From NCBI RefSeq assembly GCF_024700885.2, contig NZ_CP117016.1: a stretch of 64,000 nt of DNA; one strand, 5' to 3'. The position numbers and the translations under genes are program-made. Shown here one piece after another: positions 37,777 to 53,240 of the stretch. How positions within the stretch are numbered: position 1 is the first letter of the stretch; every line of letters begins with the position of its first letter. Origin of the DNA: Escherichia coli. GTDB lineage: Bacteria > Pseudomonadota > Gammaproteobacteria > Enterobacterales > Enterobacteriaceae. The notes under the pieces were generated by a model. The model had not been told where the DNA came from. It was given only the letters and a program-made list of their open reading frames with translations, and ran no database searches.

Positions 37777-39824
37777 TGCGTGGCTCCTTGTACCTGTTCC
37801 TTGGCGGGCGTTAATGCCGGGGCTGTCCAGTCTGGCAAGCGGGCGAAAAGCTGGCAGACGTGTTGTTCCTGTTTTAATAAGGTGGGCAGGATGGCCTGCG
37901 AGGCGGGTGTCTCTTCAAGCGTTATTTGAGGAGAACGGCTGAGTGCGGTTGCCAGACCGGCAGCGTATTTCTCCAGTGCGTCGGCAAACTGACCTGCTCT
38001 GTCCGGCTGTAGTGCGTTATCCAGCGCCTGCGCCGAGTTCCAGGTTGCATCCCAGTCGTGAAGAATATCGCGGCCCTGACGAATAACCGTTTGCGAACGT
38101 TCAATCAGTAAAGCGCGTTCTTCGCTGTCCAGTTGACGCTCCAGCGCCACGCGTTGGCACATCTCTTCACAGGCATTAAACGCCGCATGCAGACCTATAC
38201 GAATTTGCAGATAAGTGCGCAGAGCCGTGACTTCCTGCTGACGTGGGATCCGCATTACTTTACTCAACATACCCAGCGCGCCAGCCAGTTTTTGCGGCAG
38301 TGTGCGCGCTTCACTTTCAGGCCAGACAAAGGTGTAAATCACCGCGGACACCACGGTACCAATGATGATACCCAGGGCGCGATCGCGAATTTCCACCAGG
38401 TCGTACACCGGGCCAAAAACGTTTTCGAGCGTGGCGAGCGCGAAGGTGACCACCATCTGTGTGCCGATATAAGAAGAGCGTTCAGAGCTGGTGGCAATCC
38501 ATGCGCCCAACAGAAAAATCGGTGCCAGCACAAATAGCAATTCGACAATATTGTCCAGCCAGGGCATGACCAGTAACGTGAATAACAGCGCCAGAATTGC
38601 ACCGCAGAAGGCACCGCCAAAACGCAGCGCCATTTTCTGATACGACGAACCAACATTCGGGTTAGCGACGATCACGCAGGTCAGCATACAGGTGTGAATG
38701 CCTTCCCAGTCCACGCCGCTGTAGAAGGTGTAACAGATCAAACAGGCGAGCAGCGTTTTTACCGCGTAGCGCATATAGTCTGGATTGGTAAAAGCGTCGG
38801 CGACCATTGATGGCGGTTTGGTGGCGGGCGTTGGCAGCGTATTCGGGTCCATCTGACCCAGTTGCAACAATGTCTGGCAGATATTCTCCAGGTTACATTC
38901 CCGTGCCGCCATCGCTTCACTTTCAGTGATCCGCCAGTCGCTTTGCCAGCACTGACCTTCGGCAATGGCATGCTGCAGTTTGTTGATTTCTGAGGCTAAT
39001 TTTTGCCGAAATTCAATAATTGCCTGAGAATCAGCAAAAGAGGTGGGATCGTAGCGATTCAGCGTCGAGTAAATGTAGGTTACCGTTGCCACGCAGCTTT
39101 GCCACCATGCGCTCTGAGTTCGCCAGTTGGCATCGTCCGCGAGGCAAAAGACATTGAGTTTTTGCAGCGCCAGCGCCTCTCTTTCAATCCGCTTTTCGGG
39201 TAGCGGTGTGAGGCTGTCCGTCAGGTGGCTAATGGCATCATCAAGCCGATCATTAAGCGCCTGATGCATCTGCGTGATAGCGCGGCTGGGAAACCACAGC
39301 ACGCCGATTAACGTCATCAATAACGTCGGGTAGAGGCCGACAACGATACACCACAGGGTTAAGCGCACGACCACTTCCGGATAGTCGAGCATGGCGGGGA
39401 AGGTTTGCCCGTAAATAGCGACAATGGCGACGGCGAAAAAGACCAGCCCCAACCGATGGGTGCGCATCAAAAACATACAGCCCATCAGGATCGGTCCGGC
39501 AATGATCAATCGGATCAACGGTTCGCCATATGACCATTTGTAGATCAAAAACAGGCTGGCGATCTCCAGCATCGTGGCGACCACAAACAAGATCGCGACA
39601 AATTTGGTGTAAAACGCGTTCGACTGAATACCGTAAAACAGCACTGCCAGTGATAACGCCACAAAAGGGATCTCAAAAGTCATCGAGATCAGAATCACCA
39701 GCAGGCAGCCTACCCAGAGTTGCATAGTCTGCGGCACGCGGCCTGGTCGCCGCTCGCTTAACTCTTCATGAAAGAACGCCAGCAGCCTGACCACCGGTAA
39801 TGGCAGGGAGTTGAGCGCGCTCAT
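37773..39824 (-). CDS. mdtO: Multidrug efflux membrane component (FUSC/AaeB-like)
   Basis: 683-aa polytopic ORF; 4-nt overlap with mdtP start. Confidence 0.9.
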   Translation of the reverse strand: MSALNSLPLPVVRLLAFFHEELSERRPGRVPQTMQLWVGCLLVILISMTFEIPFVALSLAVLFYGIQSNAFYTKFVAILFVVATMLEIASLFLIYKWSYGEPLIRLIIAGPILMGCMFLMRTHRLGLVFFAVAIVAIYGQTFPAMLDYPEVVVRLTLWCIVVGLYPTLLMTLIGVLWFPSRAITQMHQALNDRLDDAISHLTDSLTPLPEKRIEREALALQKLNVFCLADDANWRTQSAWWQSCVATVTYIYSTLNRYDPTSFADSQAIIEFRQKLASEINKLQHAIAEGQCWQSDWRITESEAMAARECNLENICQTLLQLGQMDPNTLPTPATKPPSMVADAFTNPDYMRYAVKTLLACLICYTFYSGVDWEGIHTCMLTCVIVANPNVGSSYQKMALRFGGAFCGAILALLFTLLVMPWLDNIVELLFVLAPIFLLGAWIATSSERSSYIGTQMVVTFALATLENVFGPVYDLVEIRDRALGIIIGTVVSAVIYTFVWPESEARTLPQKLAGALGMLSKVMRIPRQQEVTALRTYLQIRIGLHAAFNACEEMCQRVALERQLDSEERALLIERSQTVIRQGRDILHDWDATWNSAQALDNALQPDRAGQFADALEKYAAGLATALSRSPQITLEETPASQAILPTLLKQEQHVCQLFARLPDWTAPALTPAKEQVQGATQ

Positions 39825-40855
39825 TATTGCGGCTCAAGATTAGCGACTGCCGAAGCGCCGATGCGGAACATTTCCGGGTCAGGTTTTTCAACCATGATTT
39901 TGACCGGAAAACGCTGGGCAACGCGGACCCAGTTAATAGAACGAGACACTTTCGGCAGGCCGCCCAGCACCAGGCCGCCGTCATCCGGTAGCACGCCGTA
40001 GCCAATCGAATCCACTTTACCCTCGAAGGTTTTGCCGCTGTCGCTCATCAGGCGAATCGTTGCGGGTGTACCTGAGCGAATATTTTTCAGATCGGTTTCG
40101 CGGAAGTTGGCGATCACGTACCAGTGACGAGTGTCGATTAGGGTGAAAATAGGGCGCATGGCAGAAGCAAATTGCCCGACGGAGGTTTTGAGGGAAATGA
40201 CCCGGCCATCAAACGGCGCGCGAACGGTCGCCATTTCCAGATGCAGTTTGGTCAGGGCAATATCCGCTTCGACCGCCGCACGTTGGGCGACCAGCGCATC
40301 GACGCCGCTGACGGCGCTGGCGGCTGACTGCGCCTGTAACAATACGGCATTAAGATCTGCTTCTGCGGCGCGCTGCGCGGTCCTCGCACGGTCAACGTCT
40401 TCCGCTGAGACAAAACCTTCTTTTAGCAACGGCTCGGTACGGCGTAACGTATCGCTGGCCTGTTTAGCGGCGGCACGGGCTTTTTCTACCGTGGCGTTAA
40501 CCGAGTCGGCACCAAACTGTTGCGCGTCAACGCTACGCTGGGTGAGCATAATTTGCTTATCCAGCGCCGCGAGGGAGGCTTCGGCTTTCGCCAGATTGGC
40601 TTCGTACGGGCGCGGGTCGATGCGGAACAGCAAATCGCCCTGTTTCACCGCTTGGTTGTCGGTGACCGCCAGTTCTACAATGCGACCGCTGACTTCCGGC
40701 ACCACATCAATGGTATCTGCTGACGCGTAGGCGTCATTAGTTGATGGCGCACTGTCTACGCGCCAGATAACGAAAACAAGGGCAACCAGCGCCAACGCAA
40801 CCACTAACAGAGCAGGGAATTTACTGCGAGGAGCTTTTTTCGGCGTACTTTCCAT
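39824..40855 (-). CDS. mdtN: Membrane fusion protein of the MdtNOP efflux system
   Basis: 343-aa ORF with N-terminal anchor and coiled coil; 1-nt overlap with mdtO. Confidence 0.9.
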   Translation of the reverse strand: MESTPKKAPRSKFPALLVVALALVALVFVIWRVDSAPSTNDAYASADTIDVVPEVSGRIVELAVTDNQAVKQGDLLFRIDPRPYEANLAKAEASLAALDKQIMLTQRSVDAQQFGADSVNATVEKARAAAKQASDTLRRTEPLLKEGFVSAEDVDRARTAQRAAEADLNAVLLQAQSAASAVSGVDALVAQRAAVEADIALTKLHLEMATVRAPFDGRVISLKTSVGQFASAMRPIFTLIDTRHWYVIANFRETDLKNIRSGTPATIRLMSDSGKTFEGKVDSIGYGVLPDDGGLVLGGLPKVSRSINWVRVAQRFPVKIMVEKPDPEMFRIGASAVANLEPQ

Positions 40856-40873
40856 GAGCGCGTCTCAAATAGA

Positions 40874-41149
40874 TTAGAAAAATGCCAGCCAGAACAGCAT
40901 GGCGTAGAGAGCAAAAAGGGCGGTATAAATAATTCCGACAAATGCCAGATTGATATTTGTCCGCTGAATGATTCGCCTCGTGATGAGCGTCAAAATAAGG
41001 CTGGCAATGGCGCAGAAAAACCAGCTGGGATAATAAGCGCCGATCACCGGGATTGCCGGAGATAATGAGCATCCCGAAACCATGAAGACGGGAATTATCC
41101 AGGCTGTTTTTTTGAGTTGCATCGCCATGCGAGAGAGAACTGTTGGCAT
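40874..41149 (-). CDS. ytcA: Small lipoprotein YtcA
   Basis: ORF track 40874..41197; trimmed to MPTVLSRMAMQLKK giving 91 aa; lipobox VSGC. Confidence 0.75.
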   Translation of the reverse strand: MPTVLSRMAMQLKKTAWIIPVFMVSGCSLSPAIPVIGAYYPSWFFCAIASLILTLITRRIIQRTNINLAFVGIIYTALFALYAMLFWLAFF

Positions 41150-41309
41150 ATTAAATACATCCTGTCTGCTGCGAACAATATCTGTAGTGAATATCAATAT
41201 CCATTGAAGGCGTCAGTATGGCTATTTTCTCGATGAATAAAAATAGCTTTATTCAGCCACCGCATTCATAACTTATATATTTTATGTATTAATTTGTTGT
41301 ATGTATTTT

Positions 41310-41348
41310 TAAAATAAATGCTTTTGGGGGCTTAAGCGCCCCCAAAAG
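41310..41348 (-). terminator. Intrinsic terminator downstream of yjcS
   Basis: Perfect 11-bp stem cttttgggggc/gcccccaaaag; the T-run is on the minus strand. Confidence 0.6.
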
Positions 41349-41357
41349 TGAGTGGCA

Positions 41358-43343
41358 TTAATTTGGGGTTACGATATTCACCCACAAATCGAAATTATCC
41401 AGACAGGCGATAATTTCTTCCAGTTTCGCGCCATTGCCAATAATTTTGGCTTTCTTCGCTTTTACCAGATCCGCCATTTTGGCTTGTCCGGTCAGCACGG
41501 CATGCAGATCTTCACGGCTGATGTAGAAAGAGGCGTCGGCTTGCGGTTGCAGCGTTTTACGGTAGTTAAGCACGCTATCGTTCAGCGTCAGGTTGAGGTT
41601 ATCGCCGTTGCTCATATTGAAGTTCAGGCTGATATTTTTACCTGCGGCTTTCGCACTATCGAGGCGAACGGACATAAAGTCGAATAGCATTTCGACCGAC
41701 ATTCCGCGAATGGTGTCCGGGGAACCGGTGGTGCCGTGGCTGAATTTATGCACCCCTTCGCGCAGCTCTTTCGCGCCGGTCAGGTAGAAACCGCGCCAGG
41801 TGGCGGACTCGGCCTGATAGCCCAGCTGTTCAAAGTTATCCGCTTGCAGATTCTTCGCGACCTGGTCACCTGGGTTGGCGGCAATCACCTGTTTCAGCAG
41901 TTCTGCCGACCAGCGGTAATCACCTTGCTTGTTCGCTTCTTGCGCCAGGTTAATAACGCGGGCAGAACCGCCCAGAGCCTGCACGTAACGTTTACCCATC
42001 TCCACCTGACCATACGGATGCAGGTTAGCCGGGTTACCGTCGTAATAGCCAAGATAGAAGTTATACACCGCGCGGGCGTTGTGGCTGACAGAACCGTAAT
42101 AGCCGCGGCTGGCCCAGTTATTGGCAAGTGCAGGCGGCAGCTTAATCATGTCGCCGATTTCATTCATGGTGTAGCCCTGGTTCGCCAGGTGCAGGGTCTG
42201 GTCGTGAATGTACTTGATGGTATCGCGATATTTACCAATATAATCATTGATATGCTTATTGCCCCAGACCGGCCAGGTGTGCGGCATAAACAGTACTTCC
42301 GCGTCGTTACCCCACATATCCAGCGTTTCGTTCAGGTACTCGGTCCACTTGCTGGTGTCGCGGGTTTTCGCGCCGCGCAGAGTGTAGAAGTTGTGCAGGG
42401 TATGCGTGGCGTTCTCGGCGGTACACAGGGCTTTCAGGGCCGGAATATAGAAGTGCATTTCGGCTGGTGCTTCGCTACCTGGGGTCATCAGGAAGTCAAA
42501 CTCCAGGCCGTCGATAATCATCTTCTCGCCAGTTCTGACAATAGTTTTAGTCGGTGCAATAATGCTCGGGTCGCCGGTTGCCAGCGTCACGCCAAGGCCA
42601 TTACCCACGTTGCCTTGCGCGTTGTGCGGCAGTAACAGACCGTAAGAGTAGAGCGCACGGCGGCTCATGATGTTACCCGCCAGCACGTTTTCGCTGATGG
42701 CTTCGTCCATAAAGCCTGCCGGAGCGATCACCTGCACTTTGCCGGATTTAACATCCGTTTCAGAGATAATGCCTTTCACACCGCCATAATGGTCGGCGTG
42801 GCTGTGGGTGTAAATAACAGCAACAATCGGTTTTTGCGGACGATGCTGGAAGTAAAGGTCAAGTGCGGCTTTTGCGGCAGGCGGCGTCACCAGTGGGTCG
42901 ATAACAATAATGCCTTTCTCGCCTTCTACAAATGTAACGTTAGAGATATCCTGGCCGCGCACCTGATACATTTTATCGGTGACTTTGAACAGGCCAGAAA
43001 TGCCGTTGATCTGCGACTGACGCCACAGGCTGGGGTTTACGGTTTCCGGCGCAGCGGCATTAATATCAAATTTGTAATCATTCGCGCGGTAGTAAACTTT
43101 GCCGTTAGCATCACGCAGAATACCTTCATCCAGCAGCGGGGCGATAAATCCACGCTGGGCATCGTCAAAATCTTGACGATCGCTAAACGGTAATGATTTG
43201 GCGTAATTCTGATTAATCTGTTGGGTATATTGAGTGGCGGCTTTCGCTTCATCTGTTGCGTAAGCGGTATTTACCATCATGCCGCTGGCGGCAGTTAACG
43301 CAATAACAATCCTGCTCAAACGGAATAACCGAGAGTTATTCAT
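41358..43343 (-). CDS. yjcS: Alkyl/aryl sulfatase (metallo-beta-lactamase fold, periplasmic)
   Basis: ORF track 41358..43355; trimmed to [21 protein letters not shown] giving 661 aa; HxHxDH motif ([10 protein letters not shown]). Confidence 0.9.
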
Positions 43344-43595
43344 ATAAATCTCCATTTATCATTTGTGTCGTAAATATGTAATCCATGCAAAATACGTCAT
43401 TTAAAGCTGGCGTTATCATAATTGGGAAATTGCGACTTTAATAAGTGGAAGTGTGAGCGGAACGAGCCATTTTATTAGGCATTTGTGCTGAAGAGGGAAA
43501 AGCACGCGAATTTATTATCTCCGTAAATAATATGAGGTGTTTTATATATTTATTATATATATTGTACTTCGGCAAATACTGAGCACAATTTATCA

Positions 43596-43913
43596 ATGCA
43601 ACCGATGTTTCTTTTTAAAAAACGTACCGGAGCAATGGGCGGTCATGTCGCTGGCACCGCAGGATTCTGCGTTGCTGTGCCAGCCTTTTATTCATGGTCA
43701 ATGAGTGAGGGGATTGATAAAGAAACCAGGTCGTCAGAGCGCACTGATTATCCGCATTACGCCAGTGAAGTTGCACTGGCTTTTGGTTCACGAGTGGTTG
43801 GCCTCGAACTGGCAAAAATGATTGTGGATGCGTGGCTGGGCGCGCAGTACGAAGGCGGTCGTCATCAACAACGCGTTGAGGCGATTACGGCAATAGAGCA
43901 GCGGAAAAATTGA
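43596..43913 (+). CDS. Hypothetical 105-aa ORF at the site where the K-12 als/rpiR/rpiB island is absent
   Basis: ATG-initiated ORF with E. coli-like codon usage but no obvious Shine-Dalgarno; not recognised by me. Confidence 0.3.
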   Translation: MQPMFLFKKRTGAMGGHVAGTAGFCVAVPAFYSWSMSEGIDKETRSSERTDYPHYASEVALAFGSRVVGLELAKMIVDAWLGAQYEGGRHQQRVEAITAIEQRKN

Positions 43914-43981
43914 GATTCATCCACTACTTGAATGGATGAGTAATGACTAATGTGGATAGAGTTTCTTTTTGAGGTTGGCTA

Positions 43982-44311
43982 ATGAAACGTTTTCCGCTAT
44001 TTCTTTTATTCACCCTGCTCACGCTGTCCACCGTTCCGGCCCAGGCCGATATTATCGACGACACCATTGGCAATATTCAGCAGGCGATTAACGATGCTTA
44101 TAACCCTGACCGTGGGCGAGACTATGAAGATTCGCGCGACGACGGCTGGCAGCGTGAAGTGAACGACGATCGGCGCAGACAATATGACGATCGCCGCCGC
44201 CAGTTTGAAGATCGCCGCAGGCAGCTGGACGATCGCCAGCGCCAGCTGGATCAGGAGCGTCGGCAGCTAGAAGATGAAGAGCGGAGAATGGAAGATGAGT
44301 ATGGGCGGTGA
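43982..44311 (+). CDS. yjdP: Secreted low-complexity Asp/Arg/Gln/Glu-rich protein
   Basis: 109-aa ORF MKRFPLFLLFTLLTLSTVPAQA (signal peptide) followed by DDRRRQ(Y/F/L)(D/E)D repeats; matches YjdP. Confidence 0.8.
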   Translation: MKRFPLFLLFTLLTLSTVPAQADIIDDTIGNIQQAINDAYNPDRGRDYEDSRDDGWQREVNDDRRRQYDDRRRQFEDRRRQLDDRQRQLDQERRQLEDEERRMEDEYGR

Positions 44312-44345
44312 TGTTGAGTTTAGAGCAGGCATCGCCCCTCACCCA

Positions 44346-45104
44346 TCACTCCACCCCAATCTCCATCCCATCAAACCCCGCCTCAAACCCTGACGGCAGT
44401 GTGTTCTCCATCAGCCACGCATCAAACTGATGGCTGATATGTGTCAGAACCACGCGCGGCGAGCGGATAACTTCATTCAGCGCCAGCACGGTGTTTAAAT
44501 CACAGTGATTACGCGGTGCATCCTCGCGCGGTGGGTGGCTGCAATCAATCACCATCACCTGCGGCTGATTATTGCGTAAAAATTTCAGCGTTTTTTCCGG
44601 CAGGCCTGCGGTGTCAGACAGCCACGCCACCCGGCTATGTGCCGTTTCCAGTAGATAGCCGAAAGTGAGTTTCGAATGGTTGAGCGGCAGCGGCGTGACC
44701 TGTAATCCCTGCAAATCAAACATCACAAATGGCTCCACCGTGTGGCTGAAATCAAGCAGGCCCGGATGTTTAAACAGATCGTCGCAGCCCTGTTCATCCG
44801 GCGGGCCGTAGACCGGGATCGAATCGCCCACGCCCCAGCGCAGCGGAAACAGCCCCTGCACGTGATCCATATGGTAGTGCGTCAGCAAAAACTGCTGGAA
44901 CGATCCGGGCGACCAGCGATCGGCGAGATCGTGCAGCCCGGCGTCGATCAGGGTGATCGCGTCGTTAAACTTCACGACGCCGCTGCATGGCTGGCGGCGA
45001 TACTGCGGTGAGCGCCGCGCTCTGACGCAGGCCACGCACTCACAGCCCCATGCGGGAACGCCCTGTGCGCCGCCAGTGCCGGTGAGCGTGAGGGTCAGGC
45101 TCAT
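44346..45104 (-). CDS. phnP: Phosphoribosyl 1,2-cyclic phosphate phosphodiesterase
   Basis: 252-aa ORF with metallo-beta-lactamase HxHxDH motif ([10 protein letters not shown]). Confidence 0.93.
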
Positions 45105-45105
45105 G

Positions 45106-45540
45106 TTACAGCGCCTTGGTGAAGCGGAAATGGCTCTGCTCGTAGCCTTCGCGCAGATAGAAACGGTGCGCGTCGTGGCGCTTCACGTTGGTGGAAAGCT
45201 CGGTCATTTCGGCCCCGGCCTGGCGGGCTTCTTCTTCTGCCCATGCCAGTAATTTACTGCCGATGTTCAGACCGCGCGCCTGCGGCATCACCACCAGTTC
45301 CTGAATTTCGCCGATCCAGTTGACATGATGCAGATGAAACTGCAAATGCAGGCCGATCATGCCGACAACTTCGCTATCCAGCAACGCCAGATGGTAGCGC
45401 ATGTTCGGATCGCGCAGATTGGCGTTAAACCCCACGCGAAACGCATGGTGGTCAAACTCCGCCTGTTTTAGCTCACAAATCAGCGCGTAAACTGCGTCGG
45501 TGTCGTACTGCGTAGCCGGGCGAAGCTCACAAGCAGGCAT
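45106..45540 (-). CDS. phnO: Aminoalkylphosphonate N-acetyltransferase (GNAT)
   Basis: 144-aa ORF; position and length match PhnO. Confidence 0.92.
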
Positions 45541-46084
45541 GGTGTTTCTCCTTCTGATGAATCAGCGTCAGCAGCTTGTCGACCGACTGGCGCAGGCTGC
45601 CGTCATTATTGAGCGTAAGACAATCCTGAGGAGTATAGCGGGCAGCGCGTGCCAGTCGGGCGTTAATTTCACTGGCATTTTCACGACCACGGTTTTCCAG
45701 GCGCTGGCGCAGGATCTCCGGCGAAACCTGTAAACAAACGGGCAGCAGCGCCGATTGATAGCGCGCCCGCGCCTGCGGCAGATGGGCGCGTGAGCCGTTG
45801 ACCACCACGTCAAATCCAGCGTGCAGCCAGAGGTCAATCTCGACGCCGATGCCATAATACAGGCCGTTGGCGTGCCAGCTTAAGGCCAGAAGGTTCTGCC
45901 CCGCGCGGGTAAAAAACTCCTGCTCGCTCAGGGCGATATGGTTTTCACTTCCGGCGCTGGCGTCGCGCGTGATGTAGCGATGCGCTACCAGTAGCTGAGT
46001 TTGTTCCCGCTGGCGGAGTTCCGTCAACAGACTGTCTTTTCCGGAGCCAGAGGCCCCCATTAACCAAATCAGTTTTCCCGTCAT
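45527..46084 (-). CDS. phnN: Ribose 1,5-bisphosphate phosphokinase
   Basis: 185-aa ORF with P-loop GASGSGKDS. Confidence 0.92.
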
Positions 46085-47220
46085 CAGAACACCCTTTTAC
46101 CCTGACGCCAGACGTGGTCGATATGAATGTGGTTGCCCTTGCGATGCGCCAGCACCAGGTCGGCGCGTTTGCCCTCGCCAATCACCCCGCGATCCTGAAG
46201 ATTAAGCGCCTGCGCCGGATTTTTAGTCACCAGCTTCACCGCCTGCGGCAGCGTAAAGCGGTTGCTCTCGTCATCGGCGACGCGAAATGCCGCATCGAGC
46301 AGGCTGGCGGGGTAGTAGTCGGAAGAAAGGATATCCAGCAGGCCAAGCTGCGCCAGTTCACTGGCCGCCACGTTACCGGAGTGCGAACCGCCGCGCACGA
46401 TATTCGGCGCGCCCATCAGCACGTTCATGCCATGCTTGCGCGAGGCTTGTGCCGCTTCGAACGTGGTGGGAAATTCGGCGATCACGCTGCCAAGCTGGTG
46501 GGATTCGGCAACGTGGGCGTGCGTGGCGTCATCGTGGCTGGCGAGGGCAATGTGTCGCGCGCGGCACATTGCGGCGATGGTTTCGCGATTAGGTTGTGAC
46601 CAGCGTGCGGCGAGCGCCAATTGCTCTTCTTCGTACTGCTGCATCTGCGCATCGGTGAGGGAATATTTGCCCTGATAATATTCGCGATACTTCTCGCGAT
46701 TGGCGAACTGGCGCTGGCCCGGCGAGTGGTCCATCAGCGATACCAGCGTCACCGGTTCGCGCTGCACCAGTTTTTCAAACAGCGGCAACGTGGTGTGGTG
46801 CGGCAGTTCGCAGCGCAGATGCAGACGGTGCTCGGCGCGGTTGACGCCGCGTTTCTGCGTCTCTTCGATGGCGTTGATCATCTTCTCAAGATTCTCCAGC
46901 CGATCGCCGCCGTCGCGCACATCACCAATCGCCACGGCATCCAGTACGGTGGTGATGCCGCTCGCCACCATCAGCGCGTCGTGGCTGCTCATCGCCGAGT
47001 GGGCAGGCCAGTCAACTTTCGGGCGCGGGGTGAAGAATTTATCCAGATTATCGGTATGCAGCTCAATCAGCCCCGGTAGCAGCCAGCCGCCTTCGCCGTC
47101 CATCGCCTCCGGCAGGCGGCTCTGGCTTTCGGCAAAGGCGCGAATTTCGCCATCCTGCACCTCCAGTGAACCGTGTACCACTTCGTTTTCCAGCACCAGT
47201 TTGACGTTATTGATAATCAT
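46084..47220 (-). CDS. phnM: C-P lyase pathway triphosphate diphosphohydrolase (amidohydrolase fold)
   Basis: 378-aa ORF; position and length match PhnM. Confidence 0.92.
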
Positions 47221-47897
47221 GAAGAGGCTCCCATCGGGTGCAGGCGGTCGGCGACGTCATTGCGTACGGCTTCGTCATGGAAGATACCGACGATGGCTGC
47301 GCCACGGGCTTTGGCTTCGCGAATGAGTTCCACCACCGCGGCGCTGTTTTTAGCGTCCAGCGAGGCGGTGGGTTCATCCAGCAGCAGAATGGGGTAGTCG
47401 ACGATAAAGCCACGGGCGATGTTGACGCGCTGCTGTTCGCCGCCGGAGAAGGTCGATGGTGCCAGGTGCCACAGGCGTTCAGGCACGTTCAGGCGCGTCA
47501 GTAATCGGGCGGCTTTAGCGGCGCAGGCTTCACGCGGTACGCCGGTATCGAGCAGAGGCTGCATCACCACTTCCAGTGCCGAAATACGCGGGATGACGCG
47601 CAGAAACTGGCTCACCCAGCCGATGGTGGTTTTGCGGATCTCCACCACTTTGCGGGCTGGCGCGGTGACCAGGTCTACCCATTCCTCACCGTGTTTGATC
47701 TGGATTTGCCCTTCGTCGGGCAGATAGTTGGCGTACAGCGAGCGCAGCAGGGTTGATTTTCCGCTGCCGGAGTGGCCGTGAAGCACCACGCATTCGCCTG
47801 CGTTGACGGTGAGCGAGGCACGTTGTAAGACGTGCAGGCGCACGCCGTTTTGCTGGTGCAGGATGAAGGTTTTACTGACGTTTTGTACGTTAATCAT
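47217..47897 (-). CDS. phnL: C-P lyase ATP-binding subunit PhnL
   Basis: ORF track 47217..48011; trimmed to [15 protein letters not shown] giving 226 aa; Walker [10 protein letters not shown]. Confidence 0.9.
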
Positions 47898-47917
47898 TTT
47901 TCGCCTCGTGGTTCGGG

Positions 47918-48003
47918 TGTCGGATGCGACGCTGACGCGTCTTATCCGACCTACGGGGAGCGCCTTTGTCGGCCGGATAAGGCGTTTACGCCGTATCCGG
48001 CAC
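47918..48003. repeat. Pair of REP elements between phnK and phnL
   Basis: gtcggatgcgacgctgacgcgtcttatccgac and gtcggccggataaggcgtttacgccgtatccggcac, inverted relative to each other. Confidence 0.6.
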
Positions 48004-48007
48004 TGGC

Positions 48008-48766
48008 TCAATTCTGCAAAACCGATGACACCAGCAACTGGGTGTACGGGTGGTGCGGGTCGTCGAGCACGCGGTCGGTTAACCCACTCTCCACCACTTG
48101 CCCCTGTTTCATCACCAGCAAACGGTCCGCCAGCAGGCGGGCGACGCCTAAATCATGGGTGACAATCACCACCGCCAGATTCAGCTCCACCACCAGGCCG
48201 CGCAGCAGGTCGAGCAGGCGCGCCTGCACCGATACATCCAGCCCGCCGGTTGGCTCGTCCATGAACACCAGCTTCGGATGCGTCACCAGGTTGCGGGCAA
48301 TCTGCAAACGTTGCTGCATACCGCCGGAAAAAGTGGTCGGCAGGTCGTCGATCCGGTTGGCGGGAATTTCCACCTCTTCCAGCCACTTCTGCGCGGTGGC
48401 GCGGATGTCGCCGTAATGACGCGCCCCGGTCGCCATCAGCCGCTCGCCGATATTGCCGCCTGCCGACACCTGGCGGCGCAGGCCGTCGAGCGGATGCTGA
48501 TGTACCACGCCCCATTCGGTGCGCAGCAGGCGACGGCGGTCGGCCTCGCTCATCGCATACAACGAACGATTCTCGTAGCGAATCTCCCCCTGCTGCGGCG
48601 TCAGGCGCGCGGAGATTGATTTCAGCAGCGTGGTCTTCCCGGAGCCGGATTCCCCGACGATGCCCAGCACTTCCCCCGGCCATAAATCAAAAGAGACATC
48701 GCTAAAGCCTTTGCCCGGCGCGTAAAGGTGGGTCAGGTTATTGACCGAAAGTAACGGTTGATTCAT
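48008..48766 (-). CDS. phnK: C-P lyase ATP-binding subunit PhnK
   Basis: ORF track 48008..48796; trimmed to [15 protein letters not shown] giving 252 aa; Walker [10 protein letters not shown]. Confidence 0.92.
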
Positions 48767-49608
48767 TGGCTTTTCGCCTCGCTCTGTTGGCGGCAATAAT
48801 CGGTATCGGAGCAGACAAACATGCGGTTTCCGGCGTCATCCAGCACCACTTCGTCGAGATAGCTGTGGGTCGATCCGCAGATGGCGCATGGTTCATCCCA
48901 CTGCTGAACGGTGAACGGGTGATCGTCGAAATCGAGGCTTTCCACGCGGGTAAACGGCGGCACCGCATAGATGCGCTTTTCGCGCCCCGCGCCGAACAGT
49001 TGCAGGGCGGGCATCATGTCCATTTTCGGGTTATCGAATTTCGGGATCGGCGACGGATCCATCACGTAGCGGCCGTTCACCTTCACCGGATAGGCGTAGG
49101 TAGTGGCGATATGACCGAAGCGGGCGATATCTTCATACAGCTTCACCTGCATCACGCCGTACTCCTCCAGCGCGTGCATGGTGCGGGTTTCCGTTTCGCG
49201 CGGCTCGATAAAGCGCAGCGGTTCGGGGATCGGCACCTGGAAAATAATGATCTGATCTTCCGTCAGCGGCGTTTCGGGGATGCGGTGGCGGGTCTGGATA
49301 AGCGTCGCATCGTCCGTGCGCTCGGTGGTGTTCACCCCGGTCACGCGCTTAAAGAAGTTACGGATCGACACTGCGTTGGTGGTGTCGTCTGCACCCTGGT
49401 CAATCACCTTCAGCACGTCGCTTTCGCCAATCACGCTGGCGGTGAGCTGTATGCCGCCGGTTCCCCAACCGTAGGGCATCGGCATCTCGCGCCCGCCAAA
49501 CGGCACCTGATAACCGGGGATCGCCACCGCTTTTAAGATGGCGCGGCGGATCATGCGTTTGGTCTGCTCGTCGAGGTAGGCAAAGTTGTAGCCGCTCAGA
49601 TTAGCCAT
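48763..49608 (-). CDS. phnJ: C-P lyase catalytic subunit (radical SAM-like, Cys cluster)
   Basis: ORF track 48763..49797; trimmed to MANLSGYNFAYLDEQTK giving 281 aa; C-terminal CxxCxxxxxxxxxC-type cysteines. Confidence 0.92.
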   Translation of the reverse strand: MANLSGYNFAYLDEQTKRMIRRAILKAVAIPGYQVPFGGREMPMPYGWGTGGIQLTASVIGESDVLKVIDQGADDTTNAVSIRNFFKRVTGVNTTERTDDATLIQTRHRIPETPLTEDQIIIFQVPIPEPLRFIEPRETETRTMHALEEYGVMQVKLYEDIARFGHIATTYAYPVKVNGRYVMDPSPIPKFDNPKMDMMPALQLFGAGREKRIYAVPPFTRVESLDFDDHPFTVQQWDEPCAICGSTHSYLDEVVLDDAGNRMFVCSDTDYCRQQSEAKSQ

Positions 49609-50665
49609 GGTTCTGCTCCTGTTGCAGACGTTTGAGTAGCTCCAGTTCGGCCTGGAAATCGACGTAGTGGGGGAGTTTGAGGTGCGAGACAAAGCCTGCG
49701 GCTTCGACGTTGTCGGCATGCGCCAGCACGAACTCTTCATCCTGCGCCGGGCCTGTCGCGTGCTCGCCGTACTCCGGAGCCTGCAACGCACGGTCAACCA
49801 GCGCCATTGCCATCGCTTTGCGCTCGCTCATGCCGAACACCAGTCCGTAGCCGCGCGTGAAGTGCGGCGGCTCATCCGGCGGGTCGATAAAACCGTTGAC
49901 CATTTCACATTCGGTCATCAGCAGTTCGCCGACGTTCACCGCAAATCCCAGCTCTTCCGGCACAATCGACACGTCGATATAGCCACTGCGGATTTCGCCT
50001 GCGAACGGATGATTGCGTCCGTAACCACGCTGGGTGGAGTAGGCCAGCGCCAGCAAATAGCCTTCGTCGCCGCGCATTAATTGTTGCAGGCGGGAGGAGC
50101 GTGAGCAGGGGTAAACCGGCGGCGTGCGGGTGATGTCATCCGGCTGTGCGCCGCTATCTTCTTCAAATTTCGCCAGCCCCTGACGCGCCAGCAGGCTGAA
50201 AACGTGCGGCGACGGGGATTGTTCGCTGTCGGCTGTGGTCAGCGTTGGCGCTTCGCCGTTTGCCAGCAGGGTGAAATCGAGCAGGCGATGGGTGTAGTCG
50301 TAGGTTGGGCCAAGCAACTGGCCGCCGGGAATATCTTTATACACCGCTGAAATACGCCGTTCGAGACGCATCCCGGTGGTGTCGAGCGGCTCGCTTACCG
50401 CAAGCTTCGCCAGCGTGGTACGGTAGGCGCGCAGCAGGAAAATTGCTTCGACGTTATCGCCGCTGGCCTGTTTCAGCGCCAGCGCCGCCAGTTCGCGGTC
50501 GGCAATGCCGCCTTCGGTCATCACGCGATCTACTGCAAGATTAAGCTGCTGTTCAATCTGGGCGACGCTCAGTTCAGGCAAATCTGTATCGCCCCGGCGT
50601 CGGCTCTCTTGCAGGGCGTGGGCGGCGTCGATCGCCTTTTCGCCCCCTTTCACGGCAACGTACAT
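49601..50665 (-). CDS. phnI: C-P lyase core complex subunit PhnI
   Basis: ORF track 49601..50785; trimmed to [16 protein letters not shown] giving 354 aa. Confidence 0.92.
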   Translation of the reverse strand: MYVAVKGGEKAIDAAHALQESRRRGDTDLPELSVAQIEQQLNLAVDRVMTEGGIADRELAALALKQASGDNVEAIFLLRAYRTTLAKLAVSEPLDTTGMRLERRISAVYKDIPGGQLLGPTYDYTHRLLDFTLLANGEAPTLTTADSEQSPSPHVFSLLARQGLAKFEEDSGAQPDDITRTPPVYPCSRSSRLQQLMRGDEGYLLALAYSTQRGYGRNHPFAGEIRSGYIDVSIVPEELGFAVNVGELLMTECEMVNGFIDPPDEPPHFTRGYGLVFGMSERKAMAMALVDRALQAPEYGEHATGPAQDEEFVLAHADNVEAAGFVSHLKLPHYVDFQAELELLKRLQQEQNHG

Positions 50666-51249
50666 CAGCACACCTCCACATGAGTGGTTCGCGGGATAGC
50701 CAGCAGGCGCTCGCCGCAGGTCAGGATCAGGTCGATGCCGAGCGGGAACGGGTGCGGGCGCTCGGTGAGTTCGTGCAAAATGCACTCCGGTAGCTGCGGA
50801 GCGATCATTCGTTCTTCGGCAATACCCGCGCCAGTAAGGCGCAGCATGCGCCCGCCGCTCAGGCTGGCGACCTGTAAAATCAGCGTCGCGCCCGCTTCTG
50901 GCGCAACGGCGGTGCCGGTGGAAAGGGCGTTGAGCTGTTCGCTGGAAATCGCCTCATCCGTTACCGCGAAGGTCGCCTGTTCCGGCTGGCTGACCAGCGG
51001 CGCGTTGGTATGAAAACGCAGGCTCTGGCTGACGATATCGTTACTTAATGGCGTAGAAAGCCACACCGGCGTGTCGTTATCGGCCAGCGTCAGCAGCACG
51101 CTGGTGGTGGCGATATTCAGCGGCTGCCAGCCGCGCTTGAGCTGATGCAGGGCGACAATCACGCCCGGCTCGCTCATGGCCTTTAACAGGCGACGAAAAC
51201 TGTGCTGGGCATCCTGCACGGGAAGCATAAAAGCAGTTTCCAGGGTCAT
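50665..51249 (-). CDS. phnH: C-P lyase core complex subunit PhnH
   Basis: 194-aa ORF; position and length match PhnH. Confidence 0.92.
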
Positions 51250-51698
51250 GCGTTATCTCCGCGAACCATCGTAAAGAAGTCGACCCGGCTGGCGTTCACT
51301 TCGGCCTGGCGTGCGGCAATGCGTGCCATACGGTCAGCGTCCAGCGGGGCAATAAGGGTTTCTGATAAGTTTTGAAAATGGCGGGTTTGCTGCATCAGCG
51401 CGTCAATCAGCGCGCAGCGTTCGGCGTGCTGTTTGTCGCGCCCCAGCACCCAGCTGTAGCCGAGCGTGCCGTCAGTCAGGCGTACGGCGGCGCGGGTGAG
51501 CGTGGCGTCGCCAGCAAAAAAGCGTTCGCCGGTGCCACCCATCCGCGCCTGAATCTGCACCAGGCCGGTTTCAGCGGCGCGGATCACTTCATAGTCGGCG
51601 GTGATGTTCAGCGCCTTCAGGCGGGCTGCCAGTTCAGCCGGTTGGCTGTGTGCCAGTACGGACATCCAGTGCTGGCGGGTCGCGGTATCTGCGTGCAT
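51246..51698 (-). CDS. phnG: C-P lyase core complex subunit PhnG
   Basis: 150-aa ORF; position and length match PhnG. Confidence 0.92.
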
Positions 51699-52424
51699 TC
51701 AGTGCTCCATAGTGAATTCAATCATGTCGGCGCGCGTCAGGCTGACGGAGTACTCCGCCGGGCTGCTTTCACCGTCACGGTGGTTAAGGGTGCGCACGCA
51801 CAGCAGCGGCGACATATTCGGGATTTCAAGACGCTGGCACTCTTTGGCCTGGGCGCGGCGGGCGCTGATCCGCGTCTGGCTGCGGCGCAGCGCAATCCCC
51901 GTTTGCTCGCGCAGAAAATCGTGCAGCGAGCCGCTGTCGAAGCGTTGCAGCGTCGGCCAGAGGGTGAGGTCCGCAAAGTAGTGGTCGATTAAACAGAGCG
52001 CGACGCCGTTGACCCGGCGCAGGGTGCGCAGGTGGATAACGTTCTCGCCCTCGGTTATCCCCAGCGCGTCAGCGACGTGACCGGAGGCCGGGCGCAGCAC
52101 AGACAGCAGTTTTTCGCTGGTGGGATGGCTGCCCTGATCCAGCAGGTTCTGGCTAAAACGCGCCTGGGCGTTGAGCGGGTAATCGAACGGGCGCATCAGC
52201 ACCAGTACGCCGATGCCCTGACGGCGCTGTACCCAGCCTTTTTCCACCAGTTGGTCGATGGCACGGCGCAGGGTGTGGCGATTCACCTCAAAGCGCGCCG
52301 CCAGTTGCTGCTCGGCGGGAAGATAGTCGCCGCAGCGGTAGTGTTGACGAAGCTCCTGCTCAAGTTTTGCGGCTATCTCCTGATAGCGTGTTGGGTAGCT
52401 GGTCGGATGTGTAGACAAGTGCAT
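51699..52424 (-). CDS. phnF: GntR-family repressor of the phn operon
   Basis: ORF track 51699..52433; trimmed to MHLSTHPTSYPTRYQEIAAKL giving 241 aa; HTH plus UTRA domain layout. Confidence 0.9.
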   Translation of the reverse strand: MHLSTHPTSYPTRYQEIAAKLEQELRQHYRCGDYLPAEQQLAARFEVNRHTLRRAIDQLVEKGWVQRRQGIGVLVLMRPFDYPLNAQARFSQNLLDQGSHPTSEKLLSVLRPASGHVADALGITEGENVIHLRTLRRVNGVALCLIDHYFADLTLWPTLQRFDSGSLHDFLREQTGIALRRSQTRISARRAQAKECQRLEIPNMSPLLCVRTLNHRDGESSPAEYSVSLTRADMIEFTMEH

Positions 52425-52444
52425 AGATATCAATGCCTCGCTTA

Positions 52445-53224
52445 TCAGATAAAGTGCTTACGCAACCGTTGAGAGAGGAAATCCAGCAGGCTGACCGTGA
52501 CGATAATCAGCACCATCAGGGCGCAGGTTTGCTGGAACTGGAAACCGCGAATCGCTTCCCACAGCGTGACGCCGATCCCGCCCGCGCCGACCATGCCGAC
52601 GACGGTCGCCGAGCGGACGTTGGATTCGAAGCGATAGAGGGAGTAGGAGATCAGCAGCGGCATCACCTGTGGCAGCACGCCGTAGAGGATCTCTTCGAGC
52701 TTGTTGGCACCGGTGGCGCGAATGCCTTCCACCGGGCCAGGTTCAATTGCTTCTACCGCTTCGGAAAGCAGCTTGGAGAGCACGCCGGTGGTGTGAATAA
52801 ATAGCGCCAGCACGCCAGCGAACGGACCGAGACCGACGGCGACCACGAACAGCATGGCGAAGACCATCTCGTTAATGGCGCGGCAGGCGTCCATCAGGCG
52901 GCGAACGGGCTGGTAAACCCACCACGGCACCAGGTTTTCGGCGCTCATCAGGCCGAAGGGGATGGAGAGAACGACTGCCAGCGCGGTGCCCCAGACGGCG
53001 ATTTGCAGCGTGACGGCCATTTCGGTGAGGTAATCCTGCCACTGGCTGAAATCGGGCGGGAAGAAGTCGGCGGCGAACGTCGCCATGTTGCCGCCGTCTT
53101 TAATCAGCGTGAGCGGGGCCATTTCCGCGCCCTGCCACGAGACGACCAGCACGGCGAGAACAACGGCCCAGCTCAGAAGCGAGAACCAGCTGCGTTTGGG
53201 TGGGGCGATGGTGATGGTTTGCAT
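52445..53224 (-). CDS. phnE: Phosphonate ABC transporter permease, apparently intact single ORF
   Basis: ORF track 52445..53287; start at [16 protein letters not shown] giving 259 aa uninterrupted. K-12 MG1655 carries a frameshifted cryptic allele as I recall. Confidence 0.88.
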
Positions 53225-53240
53225 GTTTGGCTCCGGTCTG

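Follow-up and report, generated by a model that had tools for sequence, protein, structure and literature searches.

The short yjcS-yjdP interval of an Escherichia coli strain is probably the scar of an als/rpiB island deletion, with a chimeric remnant of rpiB

The interval between yjcS and yjdP in the Escherichia coli DNA analysed here (a stretch of 64,000 nucleotides of contig NZ_CP117016.1, below called the window) is best read as a deletion scar of the als/rpiB island, and the open reading frame (ORF) of 105 amino acids within it as a chimeric remnant of rpiB; we put the probability of this reading at about 90%. The interval measures 638 bp (43344-43981), in line with the roughly 640 bp given in the original prediction, against 7,270 bp in K-12 DH10B, where it holds alsK, alsE, alsC, alsA, alsB, alsR (rpiR) and rpiB. 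That prediction placed the als, rpiR and rpiB genes of K-12 between yjcS and yjdP, and this synteny is indeed seen in DH10B, whose interval is not of the length found here. The island had further been called absent, which is correct for the als genes and rpiR; rpiB is not wholly gone, as about 208 nt of it remain at 43706-43913. The two genes that border the interval are the following.

41358-43343, minus strand: yjcS (alkyl sulfatase), left flank, with its start codon at 43343 (ORF list; yjcS annotation in strain 1190)
43982-44311, plus strand: yjdP (DDRRRQL repeat protein), right flank (ORF list; strain 1190 annotation)

The product of yjcS matches the Pfam families Alkyl_sulf_dimr, Alkyl_sulf_C and Lactamase_B, and yjdP is followed in the window by phnP, phnO, phnN and phnM. 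Strain 1190 is 100% identical to the window across the gap and carries the same annotation. The spacer between yjdP and phnP (44312-44345) is 34 bp long, as in 042, DG341-1 and strain 1190, and 146 bp long in K-12, IAI1 and YA-1, an indel of about 111 bp that is independent of the als state. None of alsB, alsA, alsC, alsE, alsK and rpiR was found in the gap or elsewhere within the 64 kb of the window, nor does the window contain a DNA homolog of the deleted K-12 segment at another place. When the deleted K-12 DNA was compared with the window by tblastx, the sole matches were paralogous ABC ATPases (phn operon).

A sensitive blastn comparison of the window with the K-12 locus (L003) gave four collinear blocks. 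The first pairs 43144-43567 with L003 1-425 at 94% identity and consists of 200 bp of the 5' end of yjcS followed by native intergenic DNA with an AT-rich tract. The second pairs 43646-43697 with L003 427-478 (41 of 52 positions identical, E=3e-7), the third 43706-43785 with L003 7036-7115 (71 of 80 identical), from the last base of rpiB codon 28 to codon 53, and the fourth 43776-44181 with L003 7265-7670 at 98%, covering rpiB codons 107-149 and the spacer and running into yjdP. The matches to the alsK terminator and to rpiB have E-values of 3e-7, 4e-25 and 0. The alignment of the third block passes the junction of a 159-bp deletion by a few bases because similar sequence lies on both sides of that junction. 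The features of the interval, some of which overlap, are given below; where no strand is named, none was assigned.

43344-43567: native DNA between yjcS and alsK, with the AT-rich tract (blastn against K-12)
43568-43645: 78-bp piece to which no als+ genome has an equivalent (missing in K-12, E. whittamii and L013)
43596-43913, plus strand: chimeric ORF of 105 amino acids (ORF list, BLASTP; RefSeq CDS WP_001182929.1)
43646-43697: remnant of the DNA downstream of alsK, with a terminator hairpin whose arms are 43650-43661 and 43673-43684 (blastn, inverted-repeat search; aligned with K-12, E. whittamii and L013)
43692-43697: stop codon and last codon of alsK, TCATGG, part of the preceding remnant
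43698-43705: 8-bp junction filler TCAATGAG at the large deletion, between two K-12-homologous blocks and with no assignable homology
43706-43785, plus strand: rpiB remnant, codons 29-53 (blastn against K-12 rpiB; BLASTP)
43761-43784, plus strand: terminator-like hairpin GCCAGTG-AAGTTG-CACTGGC followed by TTTT, inside the ORF (consensus scan, pattern match only)
43776-43781, plus strand: CTGGCT, the one remaining copy of a 6-bp direct repeat around the 159-bp rpiB deletion (overlap of blastn blocks)
43786-43913, plus strand: rpiB remnant, codons 107-149 and stop codon (125 of 128 positions identical to K-12; Pfam LacAB_rpiB)
43914-43981: native rpiB-yjdP spacer (66 of 68 positions identical to K-12)

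The AT-rich tract ttttatatatttattatatatattg that had been reported in the gap is present at 43540-43564. It belongs to the native yjcS-alsK intergenic DNA and is no feature of the junction, being found also in K-12, in E. whittamii, in L013 (a genome deposited as E. coli and about 89-91% identical to E. coli at the locus) and in O157-like genomes. A BLASTN search of the gap for the ends of rpiB and alsK, as proposed with the original prediction, recovered both: the alsK terminator with the stop codon, and two pieces of rpiB. As expected of a gene relic, the gap thus retains collinear fragments of the two ends of the intact locus, ordered and oriented as in K-12, and of the two states that had been offered for the locus it is the deletion scar that agrees with them.

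Relative to K-12 the larger of two deletions spans L003 479-7035 (6,557 bp), nearly all of the DNA from alsK through rpiB codon 28, and takes with it alsK, alsE, alsC, alsA, alsB, alsR/rpiR, the rpiR-rpiB promoter region and the start of rpiB. Its breakpoint is obscured by the 8-bp filler and by sequence divergence. The second deletion is in frame and removes 159 bp that encode RpiB residues 54-106. In K-12 this segment is bracketed by CTGGCT repeats at L003 7106-7111 and 7265-7270, where both BLAST blocks overlap, and the search for flanking direct repeats suggested earlier found this repeat at the 159-bp deletion with one copy kept. Loss of a segment flanked in this way is the signature of slippage or of microhomology-mediated deletion. 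In total about 6.7 kb of the island is missing, and no transporter, kinase, epimerase, regulator or functional isomerase is left. The hairpin at 43761-43784 owes its perfect 7-bp stem to the 159-bp deletion together with a C-to-G change and does not occur in such a form in the intact gene. Together, a deletion of about 6.56 kb from just inside the 3' end of alsK to rpiB codon 28 and a 159-bp in-frame deletion between the CTGGCT repeats within rpiB account for the missing DNA. The ORF is probably accidental: followed upstream, the rpiB frame would happen to meet no stop codon in the junction, the antisense terminator or the 78-bp piece before it reaches an ATG.

The ATG ORF at 43596-43913 is present in the ORF list with its 105 amino acids, as described earlier, but the view that it is of unknown origin has to be abandoned: blastn, BLASTP and Pfam all assign its C-terminal two thirds to rpiB, in two pieces. 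The last 68 codons come from rpiB, whereas the first 37 correspond to noncoding DNA (the 78-bp piece, the antisense strand of the alsK terminator and the junction). In BLASTP against K-12 RpiB, ORF residues 38-62 align with RpiB 29-53 and residues 63-105 with RpiB 107-149, with 63 identities and one gap of 53 residues. The Pfam family LacAB_rpiB (PF02502) matches ORF residues 61-97 with positions 102-138 of the 138 in the profile (45.8 bits against a cut-off of 24.7 bits). A full-length domain of this family has about 138-150 residues, and the ORF covers 68 of the 149 residues of RpiB. We also considered whether ORF residues 12-20 (GAMGGHVAG) could be the RpiB N-terminus (AFGCDHVGF); the same DNA fits the alsK terminator far better and the alignment with the 5' end of rpiB is at chance level, so this candidate was rejected. 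Cys66 is the catalytic base of E. coli RpiB, and the H99N substitution lowers kcat 26-fold (PMC4783025). Cys66, Thr68 and His99 (E. coli numbering) all lie within the deleted residues 54-106 and are missing from the ORF, as are RpiB residues 1-28. Lacking the N-terminal strand-helix units as well as the loop with these three residues, the product, judged from its sequence, should not be able to act as a sugar-phosphate isomerase.

RefSeq nevertheless lists the 105-residue product (WP_001182929.1 / WP_001183287.1) as an "RpiB/LacA/LacB family sugar-phosphate isomerase", and the relic bears an isomerase name in all scar genomes inspected. The PGAP/RefSeq records WP_001182929.1, WP_001183287.1 and WP_001183290.1 present the relic as an intact isomerase, and some name it "ribose-5-phosphate isomerase". 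This naming is an over-annotation, through which automated metabolic reconstructions could wrongly give about 29% of E. coli genomes a second ribose-5-phosphate isomerase. The exact 105-residue protein occurs on at least 1,000 contigs and belongs to a cluster of 912 members at 90% identity; shorter versions of the ORF, of 70 and 92 amino acids, are called in many assemblies.

To follow the distribution of the scar we surveyed 5,426 complete E. coli genomes. The full 638-bp arrangement was found in 1,568 of them at 97-100% identity, and the junction segment in 1,569 (about 29%), always at yjcS-yjdP. Junction, 78-bp piece and 159-bp deletion are common to these 1,569 genomes, at 96.7-100% identity. 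Intact rpiB is carried by about 3,400 genomes, and both it and the scar are missing from about 450. The scar is present in IAI1 and in the enteroaggregative strain (EAEC) 042, which we take to be of phylogroups B1 and D, respectively. None of 100,044 species representatives contained it, and no match among them covered ORF residues 1-37; the same scan showed that E. whittamii (L012) and L013 are als+, arranged as in K-12 and without the 78-bp piece. The flanks of the window are nearest to those of 042, with 98.1-98.6% identity in most aligned blocks and 97.0% in one phn block (about 1.4-3.0% different). Against IAI1 they are 95.4-96.1% identical, with 96.1% on the yjcS side and 97.8% in the last block, and against K-12 97.3% on the yjcS side and 94.4% on the phn side. 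By these values the flanks do not group by als state. Divergence from K-12 rises from 2.7% on the left (34344-43567, mdt/yjcS) to 5.6% on the right (44344-53235, phn), and the divergence of IAI1 from the window is about 4-4.6% to the left and right of the scar alike. Between E. coli backgrounds the region is 94-96% identical. The neighbourhood is far more diverse than the typical E. coli core, which suggests frequent recombination around a variable slot.

The slot has further states. In O157-like E. coli a different sugar island of about 9 kb replaces als, where the window shows a loss. This island encodes a D-lyxose/D-mannose isomerase, a ketose-1,6-bisphosphate aldolase, a carbohydrate kinase, an ABC transporter, a response regulator and a hybrid sensor kinase; it was seen in E. 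coli ERL03-1416 (L004 6001-12221, L096 9041-13501), at the place of window positions 43564-43981. Like the scar, it has its left boundary directly behind the AT-rich tract and a 68-bp spacing to yjdP, and the yjdP beside it is diverged. Variable DNA begins at one point after the tract in three locus states. In NCTC9966 (L005 8288-9047) the als genes and rpiB have been lost together with ytcA and yjcS, and an IS1A separates yjdP from a truncated mdtN; this is an independent, IS1A-mediated loss that extends from ytcA to rpiB. Strain BS-04 (L011 2765-3320, equivalent to window positions 43564-43712) has a variant of the scar with a gap of 556 bp, no 78-bp piece and another left hairpin arm. Its junction TCACACTGAGCGGTGAGG is closer to rpiB codons 21-29 than that of the common allele, and the variant could be an older or a rearranged form of the scar. 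As an intermediate form we set it aside, since it is a singleton (one of 5,426 genomes).

In E. coli genomes the 78-bp piece (43568-43645) was found at the scar locus alone, without a second copy. Compared with the als regions of K-12, E. whittamii and L013 on both strands, it aligns at chance level, with 61-77 of 200 shuffled sequences scoring as well. The idea that it is a templated or inverted copy of neighbouring scar sequence was rejected, as the inverted matches I2 and I5 behind it lack significance, being equalled by 95 of 500 shuffles. Its plasmid matches are all E. coli sequence of chromosomal type (records of megabase size, or matches that lie on the same RpiB-family ORF); it has no phage matches and no similarity to the O157-type island.

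Neither a promoter nor a ribosome-binding site could be recognised for the ORF. The earlier statement that it has no clear ribosome-binding site is borne out, as the 20 nt before the ATG (ATACTGAGCACAATTTATCA) contain no Shine-Dalgarno-like motif. A consensus scan of 43250-44400 gave no sigma-70-like site, and an Rfam search of the gap no match. Eight full-length alleles were compared (window, YA-1, 6817, MB06102, DG341-1, YY76-1, IAI1 and 042), in all of which the ORF is open at 318 bp. They differ by 10 nonsynonymous and 5 synonymous changes, giving from these 15 changes a pN/pS of 0.62 (p=0.27 against neutrality); nonsynonymous changes outnumber synonymous ones by 4:1 in the new N-terminal part and by 6:4 in the part derived from rpiB. 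W36, invariant in the intact RpiB of Escherichia, Citrobacter and Enterobacter, is replaced (W36R) in all eight alleles, and two further residues invariant in intact RpiB are affected by G34E/D replacements in scar alleles and by R133S in one allele. Intact rpiB, for comparison, is under purifying selection, and the RpiB proteins of K-12 and E. whittamii are identical.

The same observations bear on the other explanations of the locus. Had this lineage never possessed the als island, and had K-12 gained it by insertion, the short gap, the common starting point of variable DNA in three locus states and an O157-like island showing that the slot accepts other cargo would all be accounted for. This pre-insertion state was one of the two possibilities raised in the original prediction; however, an alsK terminator with its stop codon and two pieces of rpiB remain in the correct order and orientation, and both further Escherichia genomes recovered, E. 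whittamii and L013, are als+. Leftovers of both island ends, together with these als+ relatives, rule it out for practical purposes. Just as improbable in our estimation is that als was deleted recurrently and that the window holds one of many scars: independent events do exist, as the IS1A deletion of NCTC9966 and the O157-like replacement show, but 1,569 genomes have the same junction, 78-bp piece and 159-bp deletion, and a junction so shared points to one event for the scar allele. On the deletion-scar reading the scar would thus have arisen once, with the same junction now found on different flanking backgrounds. Whether the ORF is real or a remnant had been left undecided. That it is a remnant is upheld by the two rpiB pieces without catalytic residues, and the case for a real gene is weakened by the missing Shine-Dalgarno motif and promoter-like site and by the terminator-like hairpin within the frame. 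A chimeric gene expressed in a non-isomerase role, with the C-terminal helices of RpiB behind a new and partly hydrophobic N-terminus, would fit an ORF of the same length in eight of eight alleles on divergent backgrounds, an intactness somewhat above that expected of a very old neutral relic, a pN/pS nominally below 1 and the RefSeq CDS annotation. The pN/pS is, however, not significantly off neutral and the N-terminal part shows the 4:1 split, invariant RpiB residues are replaced, versions of 70 and 92 residues are called, and BS-04 has a rearranged, shorter one; we therefore consider such a gene very unlikely. We give very little credence to a version in which the ORF would be a young and useful expressed chimera in about 1,570 genomes and the scar core an old allele recombined across phylogroups. 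From its sequence we conclude that the ORF is probably a relic held open by chance, its intactness in eight alleles leaving a small probability of expression.

Where the scar came from is a separate matter, on which its uneven divergence bears. Identity to K-12 is about 99% over 43344-43499, 84% over the 55 aligning bp of 43500-43567, 79% in the alsK terminator remnant and 89% in the middle piece of rpiB; it returns to 98% (125 of 128) in the 3' piece, where most other scar alleles have the K-12 base at the three differing sites. The core of the scar is thus about 11-21% different from K-12 and the adjoining rpiB 3' piece 0-2%. The two rpiB pieces have lost function alike, so that the contrast needs more than decay, and simple decay in situ is not the whole history. 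The scar could stem from a deep-branching or unsampled Escherichia lineage, or be an ancient polymorphism, and have spread across phylogroups by homologous recombination through its flanks. In keeping with this, no intact E. coli rpiB exceeds 91% identity to the middle piece, over which K-12 is 95-96% identical to E. whittamii or L013. At two sites the scar reads CGC and GAA (Glu49) like L013 and Citrobacter, against CGT and CAA in K-12 and E. whittamii. The neighbouring 3' piece is 98-100% K-12-like, as in a mosaic allele, and IAI1 and 042 both carry the scar, with flanks that do not follow the als state. On the other side, the signal lies in 80 to 290 bp with few informative sites, four of eight differences are nonsynonymous, so that relaxed constraint covers about half of them, and E. 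coli is unusually diverse over the whole region (94-96% between backgrounds). Moreover, neither a donor of the scar haplotype nor a parent with als or an intact rpiB was found among 100,044 species representatives or in the contigs of two metagenome scans. The sequences tentatively suggest, at a likelihood well short of even, that the scar core may derive from an rpiB lineage distinct from the K-12-type alleles, with its right part perhaps replaced later by recombination.

From a functional point of view the deletion-scar reading connects to strains that are already described. The K-12 als regulon and rpiB have been reported by Kim et al. 1997 and Poulsen et al. 1999, as cited in PMC2808357. 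In the same slot the window keeps a homologous alsK terminator and rpiB codons 29-53 and 107-149; it differs from the K-12 regulon in lacking about 6.7 kb and in having the 78 bp that are missing from all als+ genomes. Strain W, als-negative like the one analysed here, is reported to have no alsBACEK and not to use allose (PMC3032704). For EAEC 042 it was reported that the als operon is lacking and that the strain is D-allose-negative, and a "complete absence" that includes rpiB was stated (PMC2808357). Our comparison shows that 042 carries the same scar as the window, with a 318-bp ORF at the same offset, and the stated absence of rpiB overlooks this relic. The scar explains the D-allose-negative phenotype of 042-type strains and predicts the same for the window strain. 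On its gene content, this strain is expected not to grow on D-allose and to have RpiA as its sole ribose-5-phosphate isomerase. The record WP_001182929.1 differs from a true RpiB in that its name implies an enzyme, while its sequence is without the catalytic loop. With at least three common states (als island, scar and D-lyxose-type island) and a sharp left boundary that they share, the yjcS-yjdP slot makes a convenient marker and a small example of island turnover, none of which will surprise a specialist; of mild interest are the scar core, unusually divergent from every intact allele, and the other sugar island of O157-like strains. Loss of als and the D-allose-negative phenotype were already known from W and 042, and the finding, real but ordinary, adds to these strains a common allele of single origin.
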